Of a stretch of DNA of 64,000 bases, positions 9,892-54,454 are shown one piece after another. Both the position numbers and the translations under genes were made by a program. Positions within the stretch are counted from its first letter, which is position 1, and each line of letters starts with the position of its first letter. Under the pieces are notes generated by a model, which worked only from the letters and a program-made list of their open reading frames with translations, was not told the origin of the DNA and did no database searches. Origin of the DNA: a virus (lineage: Duplodnaviria; Caudoviricetes); the IMG/VR virus record IMGVR_UViG_3300028854_000488, one strand, 5' to 3'.

Positions 9892-10141
9892 ATTTTTCTT
9901 TTCTTATATGCTTAATAGAATATTCTAAACATTCTTCCGATATACCTTCATATGTTATATGATTTATAGTTTTATTTGTTATAAAAACTGGATTTCCAGA
10001 ATCCCAATAATCTGTAAAATAACTAAATCTATCAATTGCTATAATTATCATTGAATTTTTATGATACCAAGGATATTCAATAATATCACTACAACATTCA
10101 TTACAAATAACTATATCTCCTATTTTAAACTTGTTCGTCAT
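9872..10141 (-). CDS. Small KOW/SH3-like protein with RKxKLxxL tag
   Basis: FKIGDIVIC start; ends IRKEKLKKLQI. Confidence 0.65.
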   Translation of the reverse strand: MTNKFKIGDIVICNECCSDIIEYPWYHKNSMIIIAIDRFSYFTDYWDSGNPVFITNKTINHITYEGISEECLEYSIKHIRKEKLKKLQI

Positions 10142-11289
10142 TGTTTGTTTTTATAACCATTATTTTTATGATCTTTAAATAAAAAATTCATTTTTTCTCT
10201 TGATGAATCGTATGCTTTAGAGTTATTTATTTTAAATTCATTTCTTGTTTGGTATTTATTTGCTTCTTCTTGTAATTTTTCAATAGTCCAATAACCAGTT
10301 CTTACTTGTTTTTCAGAATATCCTTCATTTAAATGATTTTCAAATAATTTATCTAATATTTTTTTATACCATGCAGCTTTATATGCTAATATATTATAAT
10401 TTCTAAAATCTTGTCTTGTTTTATATTTATTAGCCTCAGATTGTAATACATCAAATGTCCAATAATCATCTATAAAACCTTTATTTATATGATTTTCAAA
10501 TAATTCATCTAACATTCGTTTTTGTTGAGCAGTCCAATATGCACCATAATTTTTACTAAATTCTTTTCTAGTTTTACATGAATTCGCTAATTTTTGCAAT
10601 GATTTTTTATTCCATTTTATAGAAGCACATCCTAATGAGCCAGTTTTTGCAATATTAAACATATTCCAATTGTTATTTATATAATATTCTAACCAATATT
10701 TTTCTTGTGCTTGAGCATCTGTTGATTTTAATTCGTCTTCTAATATTTTATACTTTGGTAGAGGAATATTATTTTCTTTGCAGAATTTATTTAAAGATTC
10801 ATCAATAGAAAAAATGTGTTCGTTATCTCTTCTTTTTATATTATTTGTTAATCCAACATAAGCTCTATTAAATTCTGGTAATTCGTATACATATATAACA
10901 TAAATATTTTCTTTCCATTCAGGCTTATCTAAATATCCATTATTTTGATGATTTTCAAATAACTTATTTAATATTTTTTTACTACACGCCGTATAATATG
11001 CTGGTGAATTATTTTTTCTGAACTCCTTTCTGTTTTTATATTTATCTGCTTCTGTTTGTAATATTTCAAGTGACCATTTACTTTTATTTCCTATTTTTAT
11101 TTTACCTTCATTTTGGTGATTTTTAAATAATAATTTAAGTAAATTATTTTTAATAGAATATTTATATTCGCGTAAGTTGTTATTTCTAAAATCTTGTTGA
11201 GTTTCATATTTATTAACTAATAATTGTAATTCTTCTAATGTATAATATATTTTAGATTTTTTATTTTTTACGATTAATTTATTTTTCAA
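10138..11289 (-). CDS. GIY-YIG homing-endonuclease-like protein with tandem WT.E.LQ.EA.KY repeats
   Basis: IYVIYVYEL..FNRAYVGLTNNIKRRDNEH core; five flanking repeats. Confidence 0.75.
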   Translation of the reverse strand: MKNKLIVKNKKSKIYYTLEELQLLVNKYETQQDFRNNNLREYKYSIKNNLLKLLFKNHQNEGKIKIGNKSKWSLEILQTEADKYKNRKEFRKNNSPAYYTACSKKILNKLFENHQNNGYLDKPEWKENIYVIYVYELPEFNRAYVGLTNNIKRRDNEHIFSIDESLNKFCKENNIPLPKYKILEDELKSTDAQAQEKYWLEYYINNNWNMFNIAKTGSLGCASIKWNKKSLQKLANSCKTRKEFSKNYGAYWTAQQKRMLDELFENHINKGFIDDYWTFDVLQSEANKYKTRQDFRNYNILAYKAAWYKKILDKLFENHLNEGYSEKQVRTGYWTIEKLQEEANKYQTRNEFKINNSKAYDSSREKMNFLFKDHKNNGYKNKQ

Positions 11290-11580
11290 TTATATTTTTT
11301 TATTTTTTAAATATTGCTCTTCAATTTTTGCCCATTTCATTATTGGACACGTGCCACCAGTGTCTTTATATGTGTGATTTGTGAATATCTTTGCTCTCAA
11401 AGCGCATCCACATAGATTACATCTTGTAAATATATCAAATTCTCCTACCGCAACTGTTTCTTTATGCTCACATTCGTTACAAATTTGTATTCTTTCTGAT
11501 GCAAGTTCTGATTGTTCTAAAGTTGGATCAAAGGAAATTTTCCATGCAGTAAAAATTTCTTTTATTTTATTTATATCCAT
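11290..11580 (-). CDS. Small Cys-rich zinc-binding protein
   Basis: RIQICNECEH...RCNLCGC...CPIMKW. Confidence 0.65.
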   Translation of the reverse strand: MDINKIKEIFTAWKISFDPTLEQSELASERIQICNECEHKETVAVGEFDIFTRCNLCGCALRAKIFTNHTYKDTGGTCPIMKWAKIEEQYLKNKKI

Positions 11581-11623
11581 ATTTTTTTTATTTTATATAT
11601 AAAAACAATATGGCTATAATATA

Positions 11624-11654
11624 AAAAAAGTATATAATATTTTATATACTTTTT
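11624..11654. terminator. Intrinsic terminator-like hairpin
   Basis: AAAAAAGTATATAA-TATT-TTATATACTTTTT. Confidence 0.55.
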
Positions 11655-11655
11655 A

Positions 11656-11826
11656 TTATTCAATAATGCTCATGCCTATTTTAAATTTATAACCATCTAT
11701 ATCTATTTCATTTATTGATTCACAATCATCAATATTATCAACAAAAGATATTTCAACACTTTGAGTATTATCACAAATATAATCTTTATATTCTAATATC
11801 GCTTCTACTAATCTTTTATCATCCAT
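11656..11826 (-). CDS. 56-aa ORF resembling the extreme C-terminal domain of type-2 IleRS
   Basis: Manual translation MDDKRLVEAILEYKDYICDNTQSVEISFVDNIDDCESINEIDIDGYKFKIGMSIIE; below track length cutoff. Confidence 0.4.
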   Translation of the reverse strand: MDDKRLVEAILEYKDYICDNTQSVEISFVDNIDDCESINEIDIDGYKFKIGMSIIE

Positions 11827-11879
11827 ATTTTTATTTAAATTTTTATTTATATATTAACTTTTTATAGAATAATATATCG

Positions 11880-11959
11880 AACCTACGATGGGATTCAAAC
11901 CCACATTTACAACTTCAATTACAGTTACTTGATTCGTAGTCAAGACTGGTTACATAGGC
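11880..11959 (-). tRNA. tRNA-Arg(ACG)-like gene lacking a D-arm, long variable arm
   Basis: Acceptor GCCTATG/CGTAGGT, anticodon arm CTTGA-CTACGAA-TCAAG, T-arm GTGGG-TTTGAAT-CCCAT; only ACCAGT where the D-arm should be. Confidence 0.6.
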
Positions 11960-12582
11960 ATGTTATCGTATTTATCATTTTTTTCAATTAATTTTTGAAT
12001 TTCATTTTTAAAACAATCTCTTGCTTTTTCATTTTCATTTTTATACATATTTATAAGCCTGATATATTCTGGTATAAAATAAATGTCAACTTGCCCATAT
12101 CCTAATCCACCACAAGTTAATTCTCCAATACAGTGTTTAAAGAATATACCTTTAGTCATATATGAAGATCCAAAAATTTCTATATTAAATTTATTATCAT
12201 CATAATCATTAAATTCTTGCTCACAATCATATTCACATTTTAATAATAACATTTTATCATAGTTATTATTGTAAGGTTTTCTTGTTTTATCTGGATTTTT
12301 TAAATAAATAAATTTTTTATTATTTAAAAATGCTAATTTTAATTTTCTTTTTAACTTTATTTTTTTATTTTCTGGGAGCCAACGATATTCGACCAAATCT
12401 GTACATTTAAAATCAATTGTTAATTTAATTCCAAATATAAATTTAGATAATATTGAAAATTCAGAATAATTTTGTGGTTTAGGAATATCTAATTCAAAAT
12501 TACAATGATCACATTTTAGTATAGTTTTTATAAATTCAGAATGTATTCCTATATTATTATATCTAGCCATTATTTTACTCAA
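11950..12582 (-). CDS. Hypothetical protein
   Basis: 210-aa ORF; last codons overlap the 5' end of the tRNA-Arg-like gene. Confidence 0.65.
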   Translation of the reverse strand: MSKIMARYNNIGIHSEFIKTILKCDHCNFELDIPKPQNYSEFSILSKFIFGIKLTIDFKCTDLVEYRWLPENKKIKLKRKLKLAFLNNKKFIYLKNPDKTRKPYNNNYDKMLLLKCEYDCEQEFNDYDDNKFNIEIFGSSYMTKGIFFKHCIGELTCGGLGYGQVDIYFIPEYIRLINMYKNENEKARDCFKNEIQKLIEKNDKYDNMPM

Positions 12583-13054
12583 TAATATTGTTAATATTTA
12601 TTAATTTTTCTTTCATAGAACATCTATATTTATATTTTTTAACTCCTTCTATTTTATCATCTAAACACTGATCAATTAAATATTCAGATTGACGAATAAC
12701 ATATTCCTTATTACAATTTTCTTTATTATCTCCATAATGACTAGTATCAAAACCTATCATCCAATAATTATTGAATTTTTCATAATTATCTAATGTTACA
12801 TCTCCATCAATTGATAATCCGTCAATCCATTTTAAAAATGAATCTGAATTAAAAAGTTGTCCGTATGTTAATCCACCATGAACTCTTATATCATTTATAT
12901 CATCATATGGTTTTTTATATAATGGATGATTAGTAGGTAATAATATATAACCATTTCCCCATCCAAATTCTAACATAGAAGGATATAAACTAAATAATGA
13001 TAAATGTTTAACTAAATAATTTTCAATTACTAATGTGTAAATTCCGTATTTCAT
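12575..13054 (-). CDS. Conserved phage hypothetical protein (VHGGLTY...WxxGFDxxH type)
   Basis: GWGNGY, VHGGLTY and WMIGFDTSH motifs; ATG 13054 follows the promoter at 13073-13104. Confidence 0.65.
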   Translation of the reverse strand: MKYGIYTLVIENYLVKHLSLFSLYPSMLEFGWGNGYILLPTNHPLYKKPYDDINDIRVHGGLTYGQLFNSDSFLKWIDGLSIDGDVTLDNYEKFNNYWMIGFDTSHYGDNKENCNKEYVIRQSEYLIDQCLDDKIEGVKKYKYRCSMKEKLININNIIE

Positions 13055-13072
13055 TTTATATTTTATTAAAAA

Positions 13073-13104
13073 CAAAGATACTATTTTTTTATTAATTAAC
13101 CAAA
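13073..13104 (-). promoter_or_regulatory. Bacteroidota-type housekeeping sigma promoter
   Basis: TTTG-N20-TATCTTTG on the minus strand. Confidence 0.75.
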
Positions 13105-13123
13105 TAAATAATTAAAATATTTT

Positions 13124-13747
13124 TTAACTTTTTCCTGATATATTATCAACATTTTCTTGAATTTTATCAACATTTTCTTGTATATCATCAGTGCGAGTTT
13201 TTACGAAATTATCATTCTCTTTTACATTCTCTGTTATGTTATTAACATTTTTTTGTATATTATCAATATCAGTTTGAATATTTTTATCATTTTTGTCAAC
13301 ATTTTCCTGAATATCATCAACATTTTCCTGAATATCATCAACATTCTTTTTTATTTTATTATCTGTTTTTTCAACATCAATTTTTATATCATCAACATCT
13401 TTTTCGATATAGTCAACATCTTTTTCAATATCATCAACTTCAGTTTTAATATTTTCTGTCATTCCTTCTATTTTTTCAGATAATTCTTCAATTTTTTTAA
13501 TTATACTATCAGTCCTTTCTCCACTTATTTTAGCAATATAACCCAAAACTGGTAACGCTACACCTTGAAAAAATACGGAAACTATATATTGCATCCATGC
13601 AACTGGTCCTGAAGGCTGACTGAAAAATAATGGTATTATAACTAATAATGTTATTATCCAAAACATAGCCATACTAGATAATGAATTTGATAATATAACT
13701 GCTAAACCTTCTTGTAATGATTCAAATTTTTGTAACAATTTCTTCAT
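13124..13747 (-). CDS. Two-TM membrane protein with heptad coiled-coil repeats
   Basis: Two hydrophobic helices then (N)VDDIQEN repeats. Confidence 0.7.
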   Translation of the reverse strand: MKKLLQKFESLQEGLAVILSNSLSSMAMFWIITLLVIIPLFFSQPSGPVAWMQYIVSVFFQGVALPVLGYIAKISGERTDSIIKKIEELSEKIEGMTENIKTEVDDIEKDVDYIEKDVDDIKIDVEKTDNKIKKNVDDIQENVDDIQENVDKNDKNIQTDIDNIQKNVNNITENVKENDNFVKTRTDDIQENVDKIQENVDNISGKS

Positions 13748-13802
13748 ACTACTTTTTATCTTTATATATAAAAAATGTATAATAAATTATTTGTAAAATT
13801 AG

Positions 13803-13885
13803 TGGACTGAGAGGGATTCGAACCCACAAGCTCCGAAGAGAACGCATTTACAGTGCGGCGAGCCAACCAACTGCTCAATCAATCC
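13803..13885 (-). tRNA. tRNA-Tyr(GTA)
   Basis: Cloverleaf; loop CT-GTA-AA; long variable arm; GGTTCGAATCC. Confidence 0.92.
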
Positions 13886-13890
13886 ATTTG

Positions 13891-13963
13891 TACTCCCAGT
13901 AGGCATTGAACCTACATGACGTGCTTATAAGGCGCGCATACTTACCAATTATATGATAGGAGC
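13891..13963 (-). tRNA. tRNA-Ile(TAT)
   Basis: Acceptor GCTCCTA/TGGGAGT; loop CT-TAT-AA; GGTTCAATGCC. Confidence 0.85.
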
Positions 13964-13972
13964 ATTATTTAG

Positions 13973-14046
13973 TAGTCTCGGTGAGACTTGAACTCACGAT
14001 TTATTGCTTATCAGGCAATTGCTCTAACCAACTGAACTACAAGACT
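13973..14046 (-). tRNA. tRNA-Ile(GAT)
   Basis: ATTGC-CTGATAA-GCAAT; GAGTTCAAGTCTC. Confidence 0.92.
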
Positions 14047-14113
14047 ATATAAGTTTATTTTTATTAATCATAACATACTATTAGTATGATAATAGTCACA
14101 ATTATAAACTATG

Positions 14114-14183
14114 TACCGAATATGATGTTCGAAATCATTTGGATTTCCTTATGAGAGAAATCTCTTTTCCACTAAGCTTCGGC
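14114..14183 (-). tRNA. tRNA-Met(CAT), degenerate
   Basis: TTTCT-CTCATAA-GGAAA; T-arm ATGAT-TTCGAAC-ATCAT; weak D-arm and acceptor mismatch. Confidence 0.55.
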
Positions 14184-14196
14184 ATTATGTTTATTG

Positions 14197-14270
14197 AGGC
14201 CAAGGTGGGACTCGAACCCACACAATATAGTTTTGCAGACTATCCCCTTATTCCATTCGGGCACTCGGTC
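14197..14270 (-). tRNA. tRNA-Cys(GCA)
   Basis: ATAGT-CTGCAAA-ACTAT; GTGGGTTCGAGTCCCAC; U discriminator. Confidence 0.92.
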
Positions 14271-14278
14271 ATTTTTTG

Positions 14279-14350
14279 CGGGAGTGAGGAATCACGATAT
14301 CCTAACCTACTGGTTAACAGCCAGTTGCTCTGCCTTTGAGCTACATTCCC
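14279..14350 (-). tRNA. tRNA-Asn(GTT), atypical T-arm
   Basis: ACTGG-CTGTTAA-CCAGT; T region AGGATATCGTGATTCCT lacks TTC. Confidence 0.8.
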
Positions 14351-14361
14351 ATATATTTTTG

Positions 14362-14436
14362 CTGGAATAGTTGGATTCGAACCAATAACCCTCACTTTAA
14401 CAAAGTGCCGCTCTAACCGTTAAGAGCTACATTCCA
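14362..14436 (-). tRNA. tRNA-Asn(GTT), second copy
   Basis: CACT-TTGTTAA-AGTG; TTGGTTCGAATCCAA. Confidence 0.85.
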
Positions 14437-14444
14437 ATAATAAG

Positions 14445-14519
14445 CGGACTATAACGGTTACGGTCCGTTAATTTTACTTGAGTGACGGTCAAGTTCTCCA
14501 CCAAGGAGCCTAATAATCC
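14445..14519 (-). tRNA. tRNA-Asp(GTC), atypical
   Basis: CTTGA-CCGTCAC-TCAAG (C at position 33); T-arm AACGG-ACCGTAA-CCGTT. Confidence 0.65.
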
Positions 14520-14525
14520 ATTTTT

Positions 14526-14600
14526 TGGTACTGATTAAGAGAGTTGAACTCTTCTTGGCAGGTTGAAAACCTGTAGTCCTAACCGATAGACGAAACCAGC
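14526..14600 (-). tRNA. tRNA-Glu(TTC), CCA encoded
   Basis: CAGG-TTTTCAA-CCTG; GAGTTCAACTC; ends ACCA. Confidence 0.9.
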
Positions 14601-14614
14601 ATTAATTTATTTTG

Positions 14615-14760
14615 TGAGATGGAGGGGATTCGAACCAATTGTAATAACTTCTGTGCTTTTCATGTACACTTATTACACATATCTTAATACGTTTATTTAC
14701 CTCATTCCTTAGACACCTGGGTCCATCCCAGGCTGGCTTCACCACAACCATAGCCACCTC
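14615..14760 (-). ncRNA. 146-nt tRNA-like RNA with a large insertion
   Basis: Acceptor GAGGTGG/CCATCTC-A, hairpin CCTGG-GATGGAC-CCAGG, about 75 nt insert containing a TGTAATAA/TTATTACA stem, GGTTCGAATCC. Confidence 0.5.
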
Positions 14761-14785
14761 ATATTTATTTATTCATTATCCAGTA

Positions 14786-14797
14786 TTTCAAAGAGCA
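14786..14797 (-). promoter_or_regulatory. boxA-like antitermination site
   Basis: TGCTCTTTGAAA, similar to rrn boxA TGCTCTTTAACA, directly 5' of the tRNA run. Confidence 0.55.
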
Positions 14798-14800
14798 TTT

Positions 14801-14847
14801 AAAAACAAAAAACTCAGTTCTTATTTTTAAGAACTGAGTTTTTTTAT
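14801..14847 (-). terminator. Attenuator terminator 1 ahead of the tRNA array
   Basis: AACTCAGTTCTT-AAAAAT-AAGAACTGAGTT followed by TTTTGTTTTT. Confidence 0.85.
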
Positions 14848-14871
14848 TATTCACATAATAATTTTTTTAAC

Positions 14872-15003
14872 TTATCCAGTTCTTCGTACAATATTTTCAT
14901 CATCATTAATATAATCATTATTCATATTAATACATATCTCTTCCATATTGTAATTAATGTTACAATTGCGATAAATGCGATATATGTTATTCATGTTATT
15001 CAT
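14872..15003 (-). CDS. Putative 43-aa attenuator leader peptide
   Basis: MNNMNNIYRIYRNCNINYNMEEICINMNNDYINDDENIVRRTG; A-rich initiation region; last codons complementary to the 5' arm of the terminator. Confidence 0.7.
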   Translation of the reverse strand: MNNMNNIYRIYRNCNINYNMEEICINMNNDYINDDENIVRRTG

Positions 15004-15035
15004 AATGTTTACTTTTTTAATTTATTGTTTTTTGT

Positions 15036-15725
15036 TTATTTAAAATTCTTTATTATTCCTGATATTGTGGATTTTGAACAATCTAATAACTTAGAAATGT
15101 CTATTTGTCTTACTCCATCAATATATAATTTTTTAACAACTTCTTTATCTATTTTACTAGACATTTTTTTAAATTTTAATGATTTGTTTTTTATTAGTTC
15201 ATAATTATTATTAAAAAAATCAACATCAGAATGTTCAATTGTATGACAATTTGCACATAATATTTGACATTTATTTAATTCTTCTATTATTTCTATTCTT
15301 ATCTCTTCTATGGAAGAAATATTTTCTTTGACAAATCTAAATTCAAAATTTTTATCTTTTAAATGATGAAAATGTAATGCACTTGTTGTATTATTATATC
15401 CACATTTTTCACATCCTTTTACATTTTTATATTCTAAGAATATTTTTTTATCATTTGTTCTATATGTCTTAGGTTTATCATGAAACTCATAATGACAATT
15501 TTGACATAATAACTCACATTTTTCAACTTCTTTGAATATATTTTTCCAATTTTTACCCCACATACGAGATAATCTATATTCTTTATCTTCAGAATTCGTA
15601 TGATGAAAACATAATTTAAAAAAATTAGTTTCTCCACATTTTTTACATTTACCTCCTAAAAAATTTATTGCTTTTAATTTTTTAGCAAATCTTAAAATTT
15701 TAGTACTATACATTTTATCTGTCAT
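15036..15725 (-). CDS. Double HNH endonuclease with C-terminal HTH, inside the tRNA array
   Basis: Two CxxCG...FHH...C.LLC.NCH units; GVRQIDISKLLDCSKSTISG HTH. Confidence 0.8.
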   Translation of the reverse strand: MTDKMYSTKILRFAKKLKAINFLGGKCKKCGETNFFKLCFHHTNSEDKEYRLSRMWGKNWKNIFKEVEKCELLCQNCHYEFHDKPKTYRTNDKKIFLEYKNVKGCEKCGYNNTTSALHFHHLKDKNFEFRFVKENISSIEEIRIEIIEELNKCQILCANCHTIEHSDVDFFNNNYELIKNKSLKFKKMSSKIDKEVVKKLYIDGVRQIDISKLLDCSKSTISGIIKNFK

Positions 15726-15801: not shown

Positions 15802-15870
15802 TGCGTGGAGGTAGATTCGAACTCCTACTTCAGCTTATGAGACTGATATGTTACCATTACAATATCCCGC
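15802..15870 (-). tRNA. tRNA-Met(CAT), imperfect acceptor stem
   Basis: TCAGT-CTCATAA-GCTGA; GTTCGAATC. Confidence 0.65.
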
Positions 15871-15884
15871 ATTTTTTATTATTG

Positions 15885-15955
15885 TTGCGATCGTAGGATT
15901 CGGACCTCGTTTCAGGGTTATGAGCCCTATATGCTGCCATTGCATCACCATCGCG
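15885..15955 (-). tRNA. Initiator-type tRNA-fMet(CAT)
   Basis: TAGGG-CTCATAA-CCCTG with three consecutive G-C pairs; C1-A72 mismatch. Confidence 0.7.
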
Positions 15956-15962
15956 ATATATT

Positions 15963-16352
15963 TTAATTTTTTTCTTTATCAATTTTTTTATAGAGTTTTT
16001 TAGCAATTTCTTTTGCTTTTGAACTCATACCTTTTTCTGTTTTAGGAACTTCTTTATCGTCAATTTTGATTTTATCAGCAAACATTATAAATTTTTCAGT
16101 TCTATCAGATTTTCTTTTCAGTTCATCGTAATTTTCTTGAATTTTATTTACTACTTTTACTGACTCATCAATTTTTTTTTCTTTACTTTTAATTTCGTTA
16201 TAATAATTTTGAATATTTATTATTTCTTCTTTAACGCTTTGATGTCTTTCAACATTTTTTTCTTTTTTACGTTTTTTTTCTTCTTTTATATTTTGAAGTT
16301 TACTATTTTCTATTTTTTTATCTTCTAATAATTTCTTAACAAATTTATTCAT
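15963..16352 (-). CDS. Lys/Glu-rich coiled-coil hypothetical protein
   Basis: ATG 16352 (MNKFVKK) lies just after terminator 2; the track start at 16367 is inside the hairpin. Confidence 0.6.
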   Translation of the reverse strand: MNKFVKKLLEDKKIENSKLQNIKEEKKRKKEKNVERHQSVKEEIINIQNYYNEIKSKEKKIDESVKVVNKIQENYDELKRKSDRTEKFIMFADKIKIDDKEVPKTEKGMSSKAKEIAKKLYKKIDKEKN

Positions 16353-16385
16353 AAAAAAACCAGTCATTTTTTAATGACTGGTTTT
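16353..16385 (-). terminator. Attenuator terminator 2
   Basis: AAAACCAGTCATT-AAAA-AATGACTGGTTTTTTT. Confidence 0.8.
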
Positions 16386-16414
16386 GTATAATTTTAGGCA
16401 TATAAGCCTGAATT

Positions 16415-16492
16415 TTAAATTCCAGTCAATTGTGATGTATCATCATTAATGATATTTTCGTTACACATTTCTATATATAAATTTTGATACAT
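16415..16492 (-). CDS. Putative 25-aa attenuator leader peptide 2
   Basis: MYQNLYIEMCNENIINDDTSQLTGI; TGACTGG near its end is complementary to terminator arm CCAGTCA. Confidence 0.55.
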   Translation of the reverse strand: MYQNLYIEMCNENIINDDTSQLTGI

Positions 16493-16576
16493 TTTGTTTT
16501 CTTTTTTATTTTTTTTTTAGTCTTTCTTATATATAATAGAAAAAAAGTCATTTTTTTCTATTTTTAATTTGTAGTA

Positions 16577-16608
16577 CAAAAGTAATACAAAGTTTTTAAT
16601 CTACCAAA
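16577..16608 (-). promoter_or_regulatory. Bacteroidota-type promoter driving leader 2 and the tRNA region
   Basis: TTTG-N20-TACTTTTG. Confidence 0.75.
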
Positions 16609-32757: not shown

Positions 32758-32787
32758 AAAAAAGTCAGAATAATTATTCTGACTTTT
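32758..32787. terminator. Perfect palindrome, probable terminator
   Basis: AAAAGTCAGAATAATTATTCTGACTTTT. Confidence 0.7.
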
Positions 32788-42992: not shown

Positions 42993-44287
42993 AGTGGACT
43001 AAGGAAATGTTGCAGGAAGAAGCAAACAAATATACAAATAGAATGGAATTTAGAGAAAATAGCAAAGCGGCTTACAGATATTCATATAGAAATCATATAA
43101 TGAATGAATTATTCGAAAAACATATAAATAAAGGATATATTATAACATGGACTAAAAAAAAATTAAAATATACCAACAAGCAGTTACAAGAAGAGGCTAA
43201 TAAGTATTTTACTCGTGGAGAATTTATTAAAAATAATAAACCTGCGTATCAATATTCATGTAGCAAAAATATGATAGATGATTTGTTTAAAAATCATAAA
43301 AATAATGGATATTATATAAAATGGACTGATGAAAAATTACAAGAAGAGTCTAATAAATATTGTACTAGATGTGAATTTCAACAAAAATCGAATGGTGCAT
43401 ATTTATCTGCAGTTAGAAGAAATCTGATGGATGATTTATTTAAAAATCATAATAATAATGGATATTCAGATAAATACTCTAAAAATTATATTTATTTTGT
43501 TTATGTTTATGAATTGATAGATTATAATAAAGCTTATATTGGATTGACTATTAATATTGATAGAAGAGACAAAGAGCACGTATTTGATCAAAATGAAAAA
43601 TTAAATAAATTTTGTAAAGAATCTAATATTTCATATCCAAAATATAAAATATTAGATTCTAATTTAAATTCAATAGATGCTAAAGAAGCTGAAATATTTT
43701 GGATTGATTATTATAAACAAAATAATTGGAAATTATTTAATATTGCGAAAGGAGGTTCTTTAGGTGGCAAACCTTTTAAATGGACCGAAAATAAATTAAT
43801 AAAATACGTTAAAAAATATAAAACTAGAGGAGATTTTTGTAATGATAACGAATCTGCATATAATTCTGCAAATAGATTAAAAATAATGGACAAATTATTC
43901 GAAAATCATATAAATAGTGGTTATACTAATAGACAAGTTAAAGAAGGATATTGGACGAAAGAAAAAATACAAGAAGAAGCTAACAAATATAATACTATAA
44001 TGCAATTTAGAAAAGAATGTAGTAAAGCATATCATGCGGCAAGTAATTTAAAAATAATTGATGAATTATTTAAAAATCATATTAATCAAGGCAGGACAGC
44101 AAAGCATAAATATTATTGGACAACAGAAAGATTACAAGAAGAAGCTAACAAATATAAAACAAGAAATGATTTTAGAAAAAATGATATAAACTCTTATAGT
44201 TATTCTAAAACTAAAAAAATATTAAATGAATTATTTAAAAATCATATAAATCAAGGATATATTCAAAAACAAAAAAAGTCAGAATAA
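42989..44287 (+). CDS. GIY-YIG endonuclease with six WT.E.LQEEANKY repeats
   Basis: IYFVYVYEL..YNKAYIGLTINIDRRDKEH core. Confidence 0.75.
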   Translation: MKWTKEMLQEEANKYTNRMEFRENSKAAYRYSYRNHIMNELFEKHINKGYIITWTKKKLKYTNKQLQEEANKYFTRGEFIKNNKPAYQYSCSKNMIDDLFKNHKNNGYYIKWTDEKLQEESNKYCTRCEFQQKSNGAYLSAVRRNLMDDLFKNHNNNGYSDKYSKNYIYFVYVYELIDYNKAYIGLTINIDRRDKEHVFDQNEKLNKFCKESNISYPKYKILDSNLNSIDAKEAEIFWIDYYKQNNWKLFNIAKGGSLGGKPFKWTENKLIKYVKKYKTRGDFCNDNESAYNSANRLKIMDKLFENHINSGYTNRQVKEGYWTKEKIQEEANKYNTIMQFRKECSKAYHAASNLKIIDELFKNHINQGRTAKHKYYWTTERLQEEANKYKTRNDFRKNDINSYSYSKTKKILNELFKNHINQGYIQKQKKSE

Positions 44288-44302
44288 TTATTCTGACTTT
44301 TT
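44271..44302. terminator. Perfect palindrome identical to 32760-32787
   Basis: AAAAGTCAGAATAATTATTCTGACTTTT between convergent genes. Confidence 0.75.
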
Positions 44303-54420: not shown

Positions 54421-54454
54421 AAAAAAAGACTGAAATAATTATTTCAGTCTTTTT
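54421..54454. terminator. Palindromic bidirectional terminator
   Basis: AAAAAGACTGAAATAATTATTTCAGTCTTTTT. Confidence 0.75.

Follow-up and report, generated by a model that had tools for sequence, protein, structure and literature searches.

A probable leader-peptide attenuator ahead of the tRNA genes of a huge phage, and its counterparts in other huge-phage genomes

Leader-peptide attenuation is a classical form of control. In the scheme set out in PMC1183508, a short open reading frame (ORF) with regulatory codons lies before a terminator, and the position of the ribosome sets whether an alternative helix forms. Here we describe a module with this architecture, leader 2, on the minus strand of a 64,000-nt stretch of viral DNA (IMG/VR record IMGVR_UViG_3300028854_000488); the whole stretch is called the window, and all positions are numbered within it. 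From its sequence we judge, with moderate confidence, that leader 2 is a ribosome-dependent transcription attenuator that serves as the promoter-proximal gate of a phage tRNA operon.

Like trpL, hisL, pheL, leuL, thrL and ilvL (ilvGMEDA), the phage module combines a short ORF, candidate regulatory codons, a terminator and an alternative helix that uses the terminator's 5' arm, and like ilvL it mixes several kinds of such codon. Unlike the attenuators of amino-acid operons, it stands before tRNA genes and a small protein ORF, and the quantity sensed would be decoding capacity. Its candidate regulatory codons are scattered, whereas those of amino-acid leaders form a run, though related modules before tRNA-Gln genes do have runs of 5-7. 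Compared with the four-segment trp/his type, it shows two alternative structures. In pyrBI attenuation it is the ribosome that keeps the terminator from forming, and UTP-dependent pausing of the polymerase is the signal. The phage module is likewise two-state, with a closely following ribosome deciding the fate of the terminator, but here a ribosome that has reached the stop codon would mask the antiterminator strand and so let the terminator form. T-box leaders also switch between terminator and antiterminator and report on a specific tRNA pool. The phage leader differs in having neither specifier loop nor T-box sequence (the T-box covariance model gave no match at the gathering score nor at E up to 1), and its reader would be the translating ribosome instead of a bound tRNA.

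Our literature searches brought up no account of phage tRNA genes controlled by leader peptides, which is not proof of absence; the huge-phage paper that released LR756501 has no word starting with 'attenuat', 'leader' or 'terminator'. What appears to be new is that phage tRNA genes are the regulated genes, that codons are matched cluster by cluster, that the gates are arranged in series and that the design is common to several huge-phage genomes. The module has the following parts.

16608-16577, minus strand: promoter of the Bacteroidota sigma-A type, with the -33 element TTTG at 16608-16605, a 20-nt spacer and the -7 element TACTTTTG at 16584-16577.
16562-16535, minus strand: 5' hairpin AAUAGAAAAAAA-UGAC-UUUUUUUCUAUU in the RNA fold, 12 bp and A/U-rich, followed by ATATATAA.
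16492 (ATG) to 16415 (TAA), minus strand: leader ORF MYQNLYIEMCNENIINDDTSQLTGI, 25 codons and a stop, from the ORF list, with its frame kept in relatives.
16431-16422, minus strand: putative antiterminator 5' strand AAUUGACUGG with the core UGACUGG at 16428-16422, in the last four leader codons, from the duplex test.
16409-16396, minus strand: small hairpin AGGC-UUAUAU-GCCU between stop codon and terminator, inside the antiterminator loop.
16385-16356, minus strand: terminator AAAACCAGTCATT-AAAA-AATGACTGGTTTT (5' arm 16385-16373, loop 16372-16369, 3' arm 16368-16356), with T's to 16353.

The promoter (16577-16608), the 25-amino-acid (aa) ORF (16492-16415), TGACTGG (16428-16422) and the terminator all lie on the minus strand exactly where the initial annotation had placed them. 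Between the promoter and the downstream genes, the leader ATG lies 85 nt beyond the -7 box, and the sequence before it is A-rich and without a Shine-Dalgarno motif, like that before neighbouring genes. The terminator stem is 13 bp long (AAAACCAGUCAUU-AAAA-AAUGACUGGUUUU), and the small hairpin ahead of it could be a pause or spacer element.

In the mechanism that we propose, transcription would begin at the host-type promoter, and the 25 codons of the leader would be translated while RNA polymerase advances. A fast ribosome at the stop codon would cover AAUUGACUGG, the 13-bp terminator would fold and transcription would stop about 215 nt from its start. A ribosome lingering on the Asn, Ile, Tyr, Glu, Cys or Met codons (codons 2-16) would leave the antiterminator strand free to pair with CCAGUCA. 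The terminator could then not nucleate, and the polymerase would read through into a 129-aa ORF, two tRNA(CAU) genes, a second gate (leader 1) and the tRNA array behind it. Poor decoding of the set codons would in this way yield more phage tRNAs for these codons. The parts and their conservation are observed, as are the alternative pairings and the match between leaders and tRNAs across the family; leader translation, its coupling to transcription and the direction of the response are inferred.

In our sequence comparisons, the decisive evidence is the recurrence of the design before tRNA groups in other genomes. Most of the tRNA sub-clusters that we examined in LR756501, LR756502 and a 330-kb relative contig were preceded by such an ORF (13 modules). 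The 330-kb contig, IMGVR_UViG_3300029983_000007, carries at about 217.4 kb (L013:769-905) a 17-codon ORF, MNNNISNMIQQQQQTYV, that contains a run of five Gln codons and stands directly before four tRNA-Gln genes. It is followed by overlapping UUGGGU/ACCCAA/UUUGGGU/CCCAAC/GUUGGG hairpins and two terminators, a multi-segment design with the look of a textbook attenuator. The other twelve modules are in LR756501 (L016-L022) and LR756502 (L030-L033), and the amino acids that abound in each leader are those of the tRNAs behind it.

LR756501: leader MNFRIINMIQEQMQQIQNLIGGTISY, before Met/Gln/Gln...Met/Ile/Glu tRNAs.
LR756501: leader MKNMVRKYNDYCINDKLKMLIG, before Ile/Cys/Asp/Asn/Tyr tRNAs.
LR756501: leader MNNILHINLLNSLCLLGIKLIG, Leu-rich, before five tRNA-Leu.
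LR756501: leader ...HSKHFSSSSKWF..., before Trp/His/Phe/Lys/Ser tRNAs.
LR756501: leader ...TPAPAVAFRRGTGTGTGTCVPAG..., before Arg/Thr/Val/Ala/Gly/Pro tRNAs.
LR756502: seven more leaders, including MTTSFQQQQQQQINRTD (Q7) before four tRNA-Gln.

These modules share the order seen in the window: a 5' hairpin (GAAAAAAnnGACnTTTTT..ATATATA), an A-rich spacer, a short ORF whose last codons repeat the terminator 3' arm, the terminator and the tRNAs. The leader ending ...KYNDYCINDKLKMLIG in LR756501 resembles leader 1 of the window (...NNDYINDDENIVRRTG). They differ in their arm sequences (UGAUUGGG, UUCGGGGUU, GGGUGUGGGU, UGACUGG, AAGAACUG and others across the modules) and in their codon sets, each set matching its own tRNAs. 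When the leaders of fifteen modules were compared with their own tRNA sets, the summed z was 60.1, a value reached by 0 of 200,000 random assignments (best 41.3), and 11 of the 15 ranked their own set first. The 3' end of the ORF was complementary to the next terminator in 10/10 tested of the 12 modules, the Arg/Ser and Gln modules of LR756502 lying outside this test. Duplexes between a leader and its own terminator arm averaged -12.5 kcal/mol against -6.4 kcal/mol for cross-family pairs (Mann-Whitney p = 1.4e-4), and the true assignment of leaders to arms was the best of 120 permutations in two independent sets. The antiterminator strand lies in the last codons of the ORF or, in the tRNA-Gln module, in the bases right after the stop codon. 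Judged from these sequences, leader, 5' arm and 3' arm show three-way covariation across paralogues and orthologues. The design does not accompany every tRNA gene: by eye, the cluster at 320.7 kb of the relative's contig (L014) had no convincing leader, and some small or single-tRNA clusters of LR756501 and LR756502 had no evident one.

The same comparison bears on the idea that leader 2 is an accident, an intergenic ORF in AT-rich DNA that by coincidence stands before a terminator and has 7 nt in common with it. Short ORFs are indeed frequent (231 of 20-45 aa in the window), and the 7-mer match was picked after being seen. Chance is nonetheless barely credible here, given a frame kept through indels, compensatory changes and an architecture that recurs in 14 other modules of three lineages.

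If the attenuator reading is true, the textbook logic of amino-acid operons apparently controls tRNA genes themselves, in the largest known phages. Such phages would gauge decoding per codon family and top up the matching tRNAs, not merely add tRNAs, which would help explain the grouping of huge-phage tRNA genes by amino acid. The leader would be a sequence-only readout of what an odd phage tRNA decodes, useful for many non-canonical tRNAs, and the modules would offer compact natural parts for studying transcription-translation coupling in Bacteroidota-type hosts. Dozens of short ORFs and terminators in published 600-735 kb genomes would also gain a function.

Within the window, terminator-like hairpins are enriched (9 against 1.3 expected). 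We took 14 strong A-tract/T-tract hairpins in both orientations (28 in all) and compared the pairing of the 100 nt upstream with the 5' arm against that of 1000 random window segments. The end of leader 2, through the exact repeat TGACTGG, forms a duplex of -11.5 kcal/mol with the 5' arm of its terminator, more stable than 99.3 per cent of random segments (P = 0.007); leader 1 gives -11.2 kcal/mol with its own terminator (repeat AAGAACTG, P = 0.009). No others among the 28 orientations fell below P = 0.01. The pairing of TGACTGG with the terminator 5' arm, and the complementarity of each window terminator to its own leader, thus stand as first proposed. The remaining window terminators are mostly between convergent genes or have a promoter after them, whereas those of leader 1 and leader 2 have a promoter ahead and genes in the same orientation behind, and lack a following consensus promoter; at leader 2 there is no space for one between the T-run and the ATG at 16352. 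The genes around the module are on the minus strand, including every ORF of at least 150 aa at 10138-15725 and, as far as 16866, the smaller ORFs and the tRNA genes. Because all nearby ORFs and tRNA genes lie on that strand, there is no plus-strand gene for which the terminator at 16385-16356 would be needed.

We folded the RNA up to the terminator loop, leaving out the 3' arm, and then in full. Without the 3' arm, the ORF end and the 5' arm are paired in the minimum free energy structures of the window (-15.0 kcal/mol), its relatives (-19.2 kcal/mol) and leader 1 (-10.6 kcal/mol). In the full fold the window prefers the terminator (-23.4 kcal/mol), while the relatives still prefer the antiterminator. 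The helix UGACUGG:CCAGUCA occupies the loop-proximal half of the terminator 5' arm, the nucleation site of the hairpin.

The module was found in nine IMG/VR contigs and three metagenome contigs, at about 85-90 per cent DNA identity. Among these close relatives the promoter, the 5' hairpin and the terminator hardly vary. The genes upstream of the promoter differ from one relative to another, so that the conserved unit extends from the promoter as far as the tRNAs. In the terminator, one compensatory pair separates the window from its relatives (A-U to U-A). The relatives' 5' arm has an extra A, which is bulged in the terminator and extends the antiterminator to 9 bp (AAUUGACUG:CAGUCAAUU); their small hairpin keeps its stem with a loop 2 nt shorter. 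An exact-pattern search of IMG/VR for the leader gave no match, and a metagenome scan with an alignment of the 129-aa ORF returned the same close relatives only, with no orthologues of this module at intermediate distance.

The tRNAs downstream of leader 2 cover Met, Glu, Asn, Cys, Ile and Tyr, and this set accounts for 14 of its 24 codons (P = 0.015, z = 2.5; proteome background 0.346); 3.9 per cent of the 231 random window short ORFs (20-45 aa) reach the same fraction. These residues make up 13 of the 15 codons at positions 2-16, ahead of the part that a ribosome terminating at the stop codon would hide, and 1 of the last 9, a split chosen after seeing the data. The relatives' leader, MYRNLYINEEMCNNEIINNIDDTSQLTEK, has 29 aa, its frame kept through two 6-nt indels; 18 of its 28 codons fall in the set (P = 0.0013), and the four inserted codons (Asn, Glu, Asn and Ile) are all members. 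The peptide is otherwise poorly conserved, with Gln changed to Arg and Gly-Ile to Glu-Lys. The strings INDD and ENI, which the initial annotation had noted in both window leaders, are indeed there in the window but are not kept in the relatives; because the relatives break them, they are probably regulatory Ile, Asn, Asp and Glu codons and not a peptide motif. Similarly, ACT-GGA does not hold as the antiterminator core, since the relatives of leader 2 have ACT-GAG, and only ACUG is conserved.

This pattern of change also bears on whether leader 2 is an ordinary small gene, with a product of 25-29 aa, followed by a constitutively leaky terminator that allows a fixed read-through with no sensing by ribosomes. 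Conservation of the ORF and its frame would fit, as would the well-kept N-terminal MY.NLYI and EMCN, the many terminators after genes in this phage and the modest codon match of leader 2. The peptide, however, changes fast among close relatives while its composition and its complementarity to the terminator persist, and such complementarity is rare at other window terminators. Moreover, fifteen analogous ORFs track the identity of the downstream tRNAs, as an unrelated small protein would not. We consider this explanation unlikely.

RNA data were sparse. Three metatranscriptome runs contain small shares of the window, and most of the cover is low-complexity poly-A/T matching (16255-16287, 16492-16525). 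Exact pieces of RNA contigs span 16029-16334 in two studies and, in a single contig of depth 2, 16359-16491. They are uninformative on ends, levels and termination, and none of the sparse contigs of the three runs bridges the terminator. The depth-2 contig continues past 16359 with 18 unrelated letters, starting inside the terminator 3' arm; strain variation, a chimera and a processed end are all conceivable, and contigs alone do not decide between them.

That contig would, weakly, suit a view in which the transcript of about 215 nt acts chiefly in trans as a small RNA, or has a dual function like the attenuator RNA rnTrpL, with the ORF secondary. A strong promoter, an invariant 5' hairpin and a strong terminator mark the module off as a unit of its own, and attenuator RNAs that act in trans have precedent (PMC7968998). 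Against this, no Rfam family scored above threshold, there is no known target, the 5' cassette is found before protein genes too and so is promoter-proximal in a general way, and the correspondence between codons and tRNAs would be left unexplained. A trans-acting role as the main function is therefore quite improbable. At a permissive threshold, Rfam gave only sub-threshold chance matches (STnc240, 30 bits against a gathering score of 55).

Antitermination might also be real but set by something other than the ribosome, for example a phage protein or an uncharged tRNA (PyrR/TRAP-like or T-box-like). Alternative pairings exist, and the conserved 5' hairpin is a possible binding site. Such a factor is very unlikely in our view: neither the T-box nor any other cis-regulatory family of Rfam matched, and the antiterminator strand at the end of the ORF, together with codons that match the tRNAs, points to the ribosome as reader.

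Several points weigh against reading leader 2 as a ribosome-dependent attenuator. The window terminator (about -17 to -23 kcal/mol) is far more stable than the 7-bp antiterminator. We found no 1:2-type hairpin: folding gave only local hairpins in the ORF, UGACUGG is not conservedly sequestered, and the CUGGA/UUCAG pairing of the window is lost in relatives. The untranslated state should therefore read through, unlike in trp. The codon match of leader 2 itself is modest, it has one internal Met codon only, though tRNA(CAU) genes come next downstream, and its spectrum resembles that of leader 1, as might be expected of a duplicate in decay. Past the terminator, a -7-like TAAATTTG at 16347-16340, which is without a -33 TTTG and absent in relatives, could give terminator-independent transcription of the tRNAs. 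Some selection bias remains in the comparison with other genomes, where the short ORFs were chosen by eye as the ORF ending just before a terminator. Finally, leader translation, termination and its regulation are deduced from sequence, and transcription-translation coupling is assumed for a host that is presumably one of the Bacteroidota.

Downstream of the terminator, the proposed attenuator would gate the following features.

16352-15963, minus strand: 129-aa Lys/Glu-rich ORF, the first gated gene, whose ATG adjoins the T-run.
15954-15886, minus strand: tRNA(CAU) gene 1 (Rfam tRNA, 41.3 bits; missed by ARAGORN).
15870-15802, minus strand: tRNA(CAU) gene 2, a weak match (Rfam tRNA, 35 bits; missed by ARAGORN).
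15003-14807, minus strand: second-tier module, with leader 1 at 15003-14872 and its terminator at 14844-14807, before the Glu/Asn/Cys/Ile/Tyr tRNA array.

The 129-aa ORF had no Pfam match, and its C-terminal part is found in nine IMG/VR contigs at 77-93 per cent identity in the best tblastn segment (84-88 per cent in the alignment). Behind it come, in order, the two tRNA(CAU) genes, the gene of an HNH endonuclease, the leader 1 module including its terminator, and an array of Glu/Asn/Asn/Cys/Ile/Ile/Tyr tRNAs. The module had been described as lying upstream of fMet/Met tRNAs. Two tRNA(CAU) genes are indeed downstream, but the 129-aa ORF intervenes, and the two-tier attenuation proposed for the tRNA region, whose parts, order and complementarity are conserved and recur in three phage lineages, would also gate this protein ORF.

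Both window modules are laid out alike, with a stop codon, a small hairpin and a terminator. Their peptides are collinear, (M/I)YRN..IN..EE(M/I)C..NN..IN..DD......TG, to a degree reached by 0.2-3 per cent of composition-preserving shuffles (P = 0.002-0.03). At the DNA level, only the terminators could be aligned (P = 0.035). The suggested paralogy of leader 1 and leader 2 is plausible on the peptide comparison.

Features of tRNA(CAU) gene 1 are mixed: it has an initiator-like GGG/CCC anticodon stem, yet also G1:C72 and U11:A24. Because the initiator-like G:C pairs coexist with the G1:C72 end, sequence features do not settle whether it is an initiator or an elongator. Both tRNA(CAU) genes (15802-15954) are 69 nt long with weak T-arms, and relatives have one copy or two identical copies. 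Since the gate has no structure that would terminate in the absence of translation and precedes tRNA(CAU) genes, at least one with an initiator-like anticodon stem, it might gauge the frequency of initiation at the leader. In that role it would sense initiator tRNA or the capacity for initiation, and would be in series with elongation sensors, each specific to certain codons, at the other tRNA groups; all of them together would form a genome-wide, per-codon feedback on the viral tRNA pool. We regard this extension as speculative and rather unlikely.

Homing endonuclease genes occupy differing sites of the tRNA operon, with an HNH gene in the window (15036-15725, minus strand), a GIY-YIG-like gene in one relative (L004:5360-5950) and none in another (L001). 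Between the leader 1 terminator and tRNA-Glu, about 140 nt (14610-14752, minus strand) have tRNA-like ends, GAGGUGG ... GGUUCGAAUCCCCUCCAUCUC. Neither ARAGORN nor Rfam called this segment and its fold is no better than that of shuffles; a tRNA interrupted by a long insertion, or a remnant, would be possible identities.

Bacteroides promoters have the consensus -33 TTTG / -7 TAnnTTTG. The site at 16608-16577 is a perfect fit to this Bacteroidota sigma-A type pattern (elements about 19-21 nt apart) and is kept in the close relatives, in some with a tandem copy. In one group of relatives (L001:4600-4800), the promoter and part of the hairpin cassette are tandemly duplicated upstream of the leader. 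With 19 sites against 5.9 +/- 2.7 in shuffles, the pattern TTTG-N18-22-TAnnTTTG is over-represented in the window, whereas a sigma-70 promoter scan of the window found no enrichment (117 against 112). The 5' hairpin that follows is invariant among close relatives and separated from the leader ORF by the A-rich spacer. The cassette to which it belongs, GAAAAAAnnGACnTTTTT..ATATATA (16530-16562 in the window), has seven copies in LR756501 and none in a reversed control; four of the seven are before tRNA leaders and three elsewhere. It is common to distant huge phages and also lies upstream of protein genes (L025, L026). We had considered the cassette as an attenuator-specific part, which its presence at protein genes rules out; by its distribution among these sequences, it marks a promoter class or operator and is not part of the attenuator.

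The G+C content of the window is 22 per cent. An origin in a giant eukaryotic virus, mimivirus-like and with the hairpins as 3'-end signals, was prompted by genes for Hsp70, RtcB and asparagine synthase (AsnS) and by a weak A5L-like match. It was ruled out on four observations: the mimivirus early motif AAAATTGA is not enriched in the window, the sole homologues of a 995-aa protein in the phage collection are in the huge phages LR756501-3 and LR745206 (635-735 kb), several window proteins match PHROG families, and Bacteroidota-type promoters are enriched. Because of these same observations, the window is assigned to a huge phage with a probably Bacteroidota-like host, in which coupled transcription and translation is at least possible.

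Several window terminators (32760-32787, 44273-44302 and 54423-54454) share a near-identical stem, AAAAAGTCAGAAT-AATT-ATTCTGACTTTTT, and CAG/CTG is present in many window terminator stems, which suggests a family of related terminator sequences. In LR756501, two adjacent tRNA genes at about 690.6 kb (L023) have the anticodon CUA (called 'Pyl' by ARAGORN) and are possible amber suppressors. Elsewhere in that genome (L017:271-642, read on the minus strand), an ORF between a leader with its terminator and the tRNAs starts with MENIKEFAEKLSNLTVLECYQLAKI, which by eye only resembles the N-terminus of bL12.

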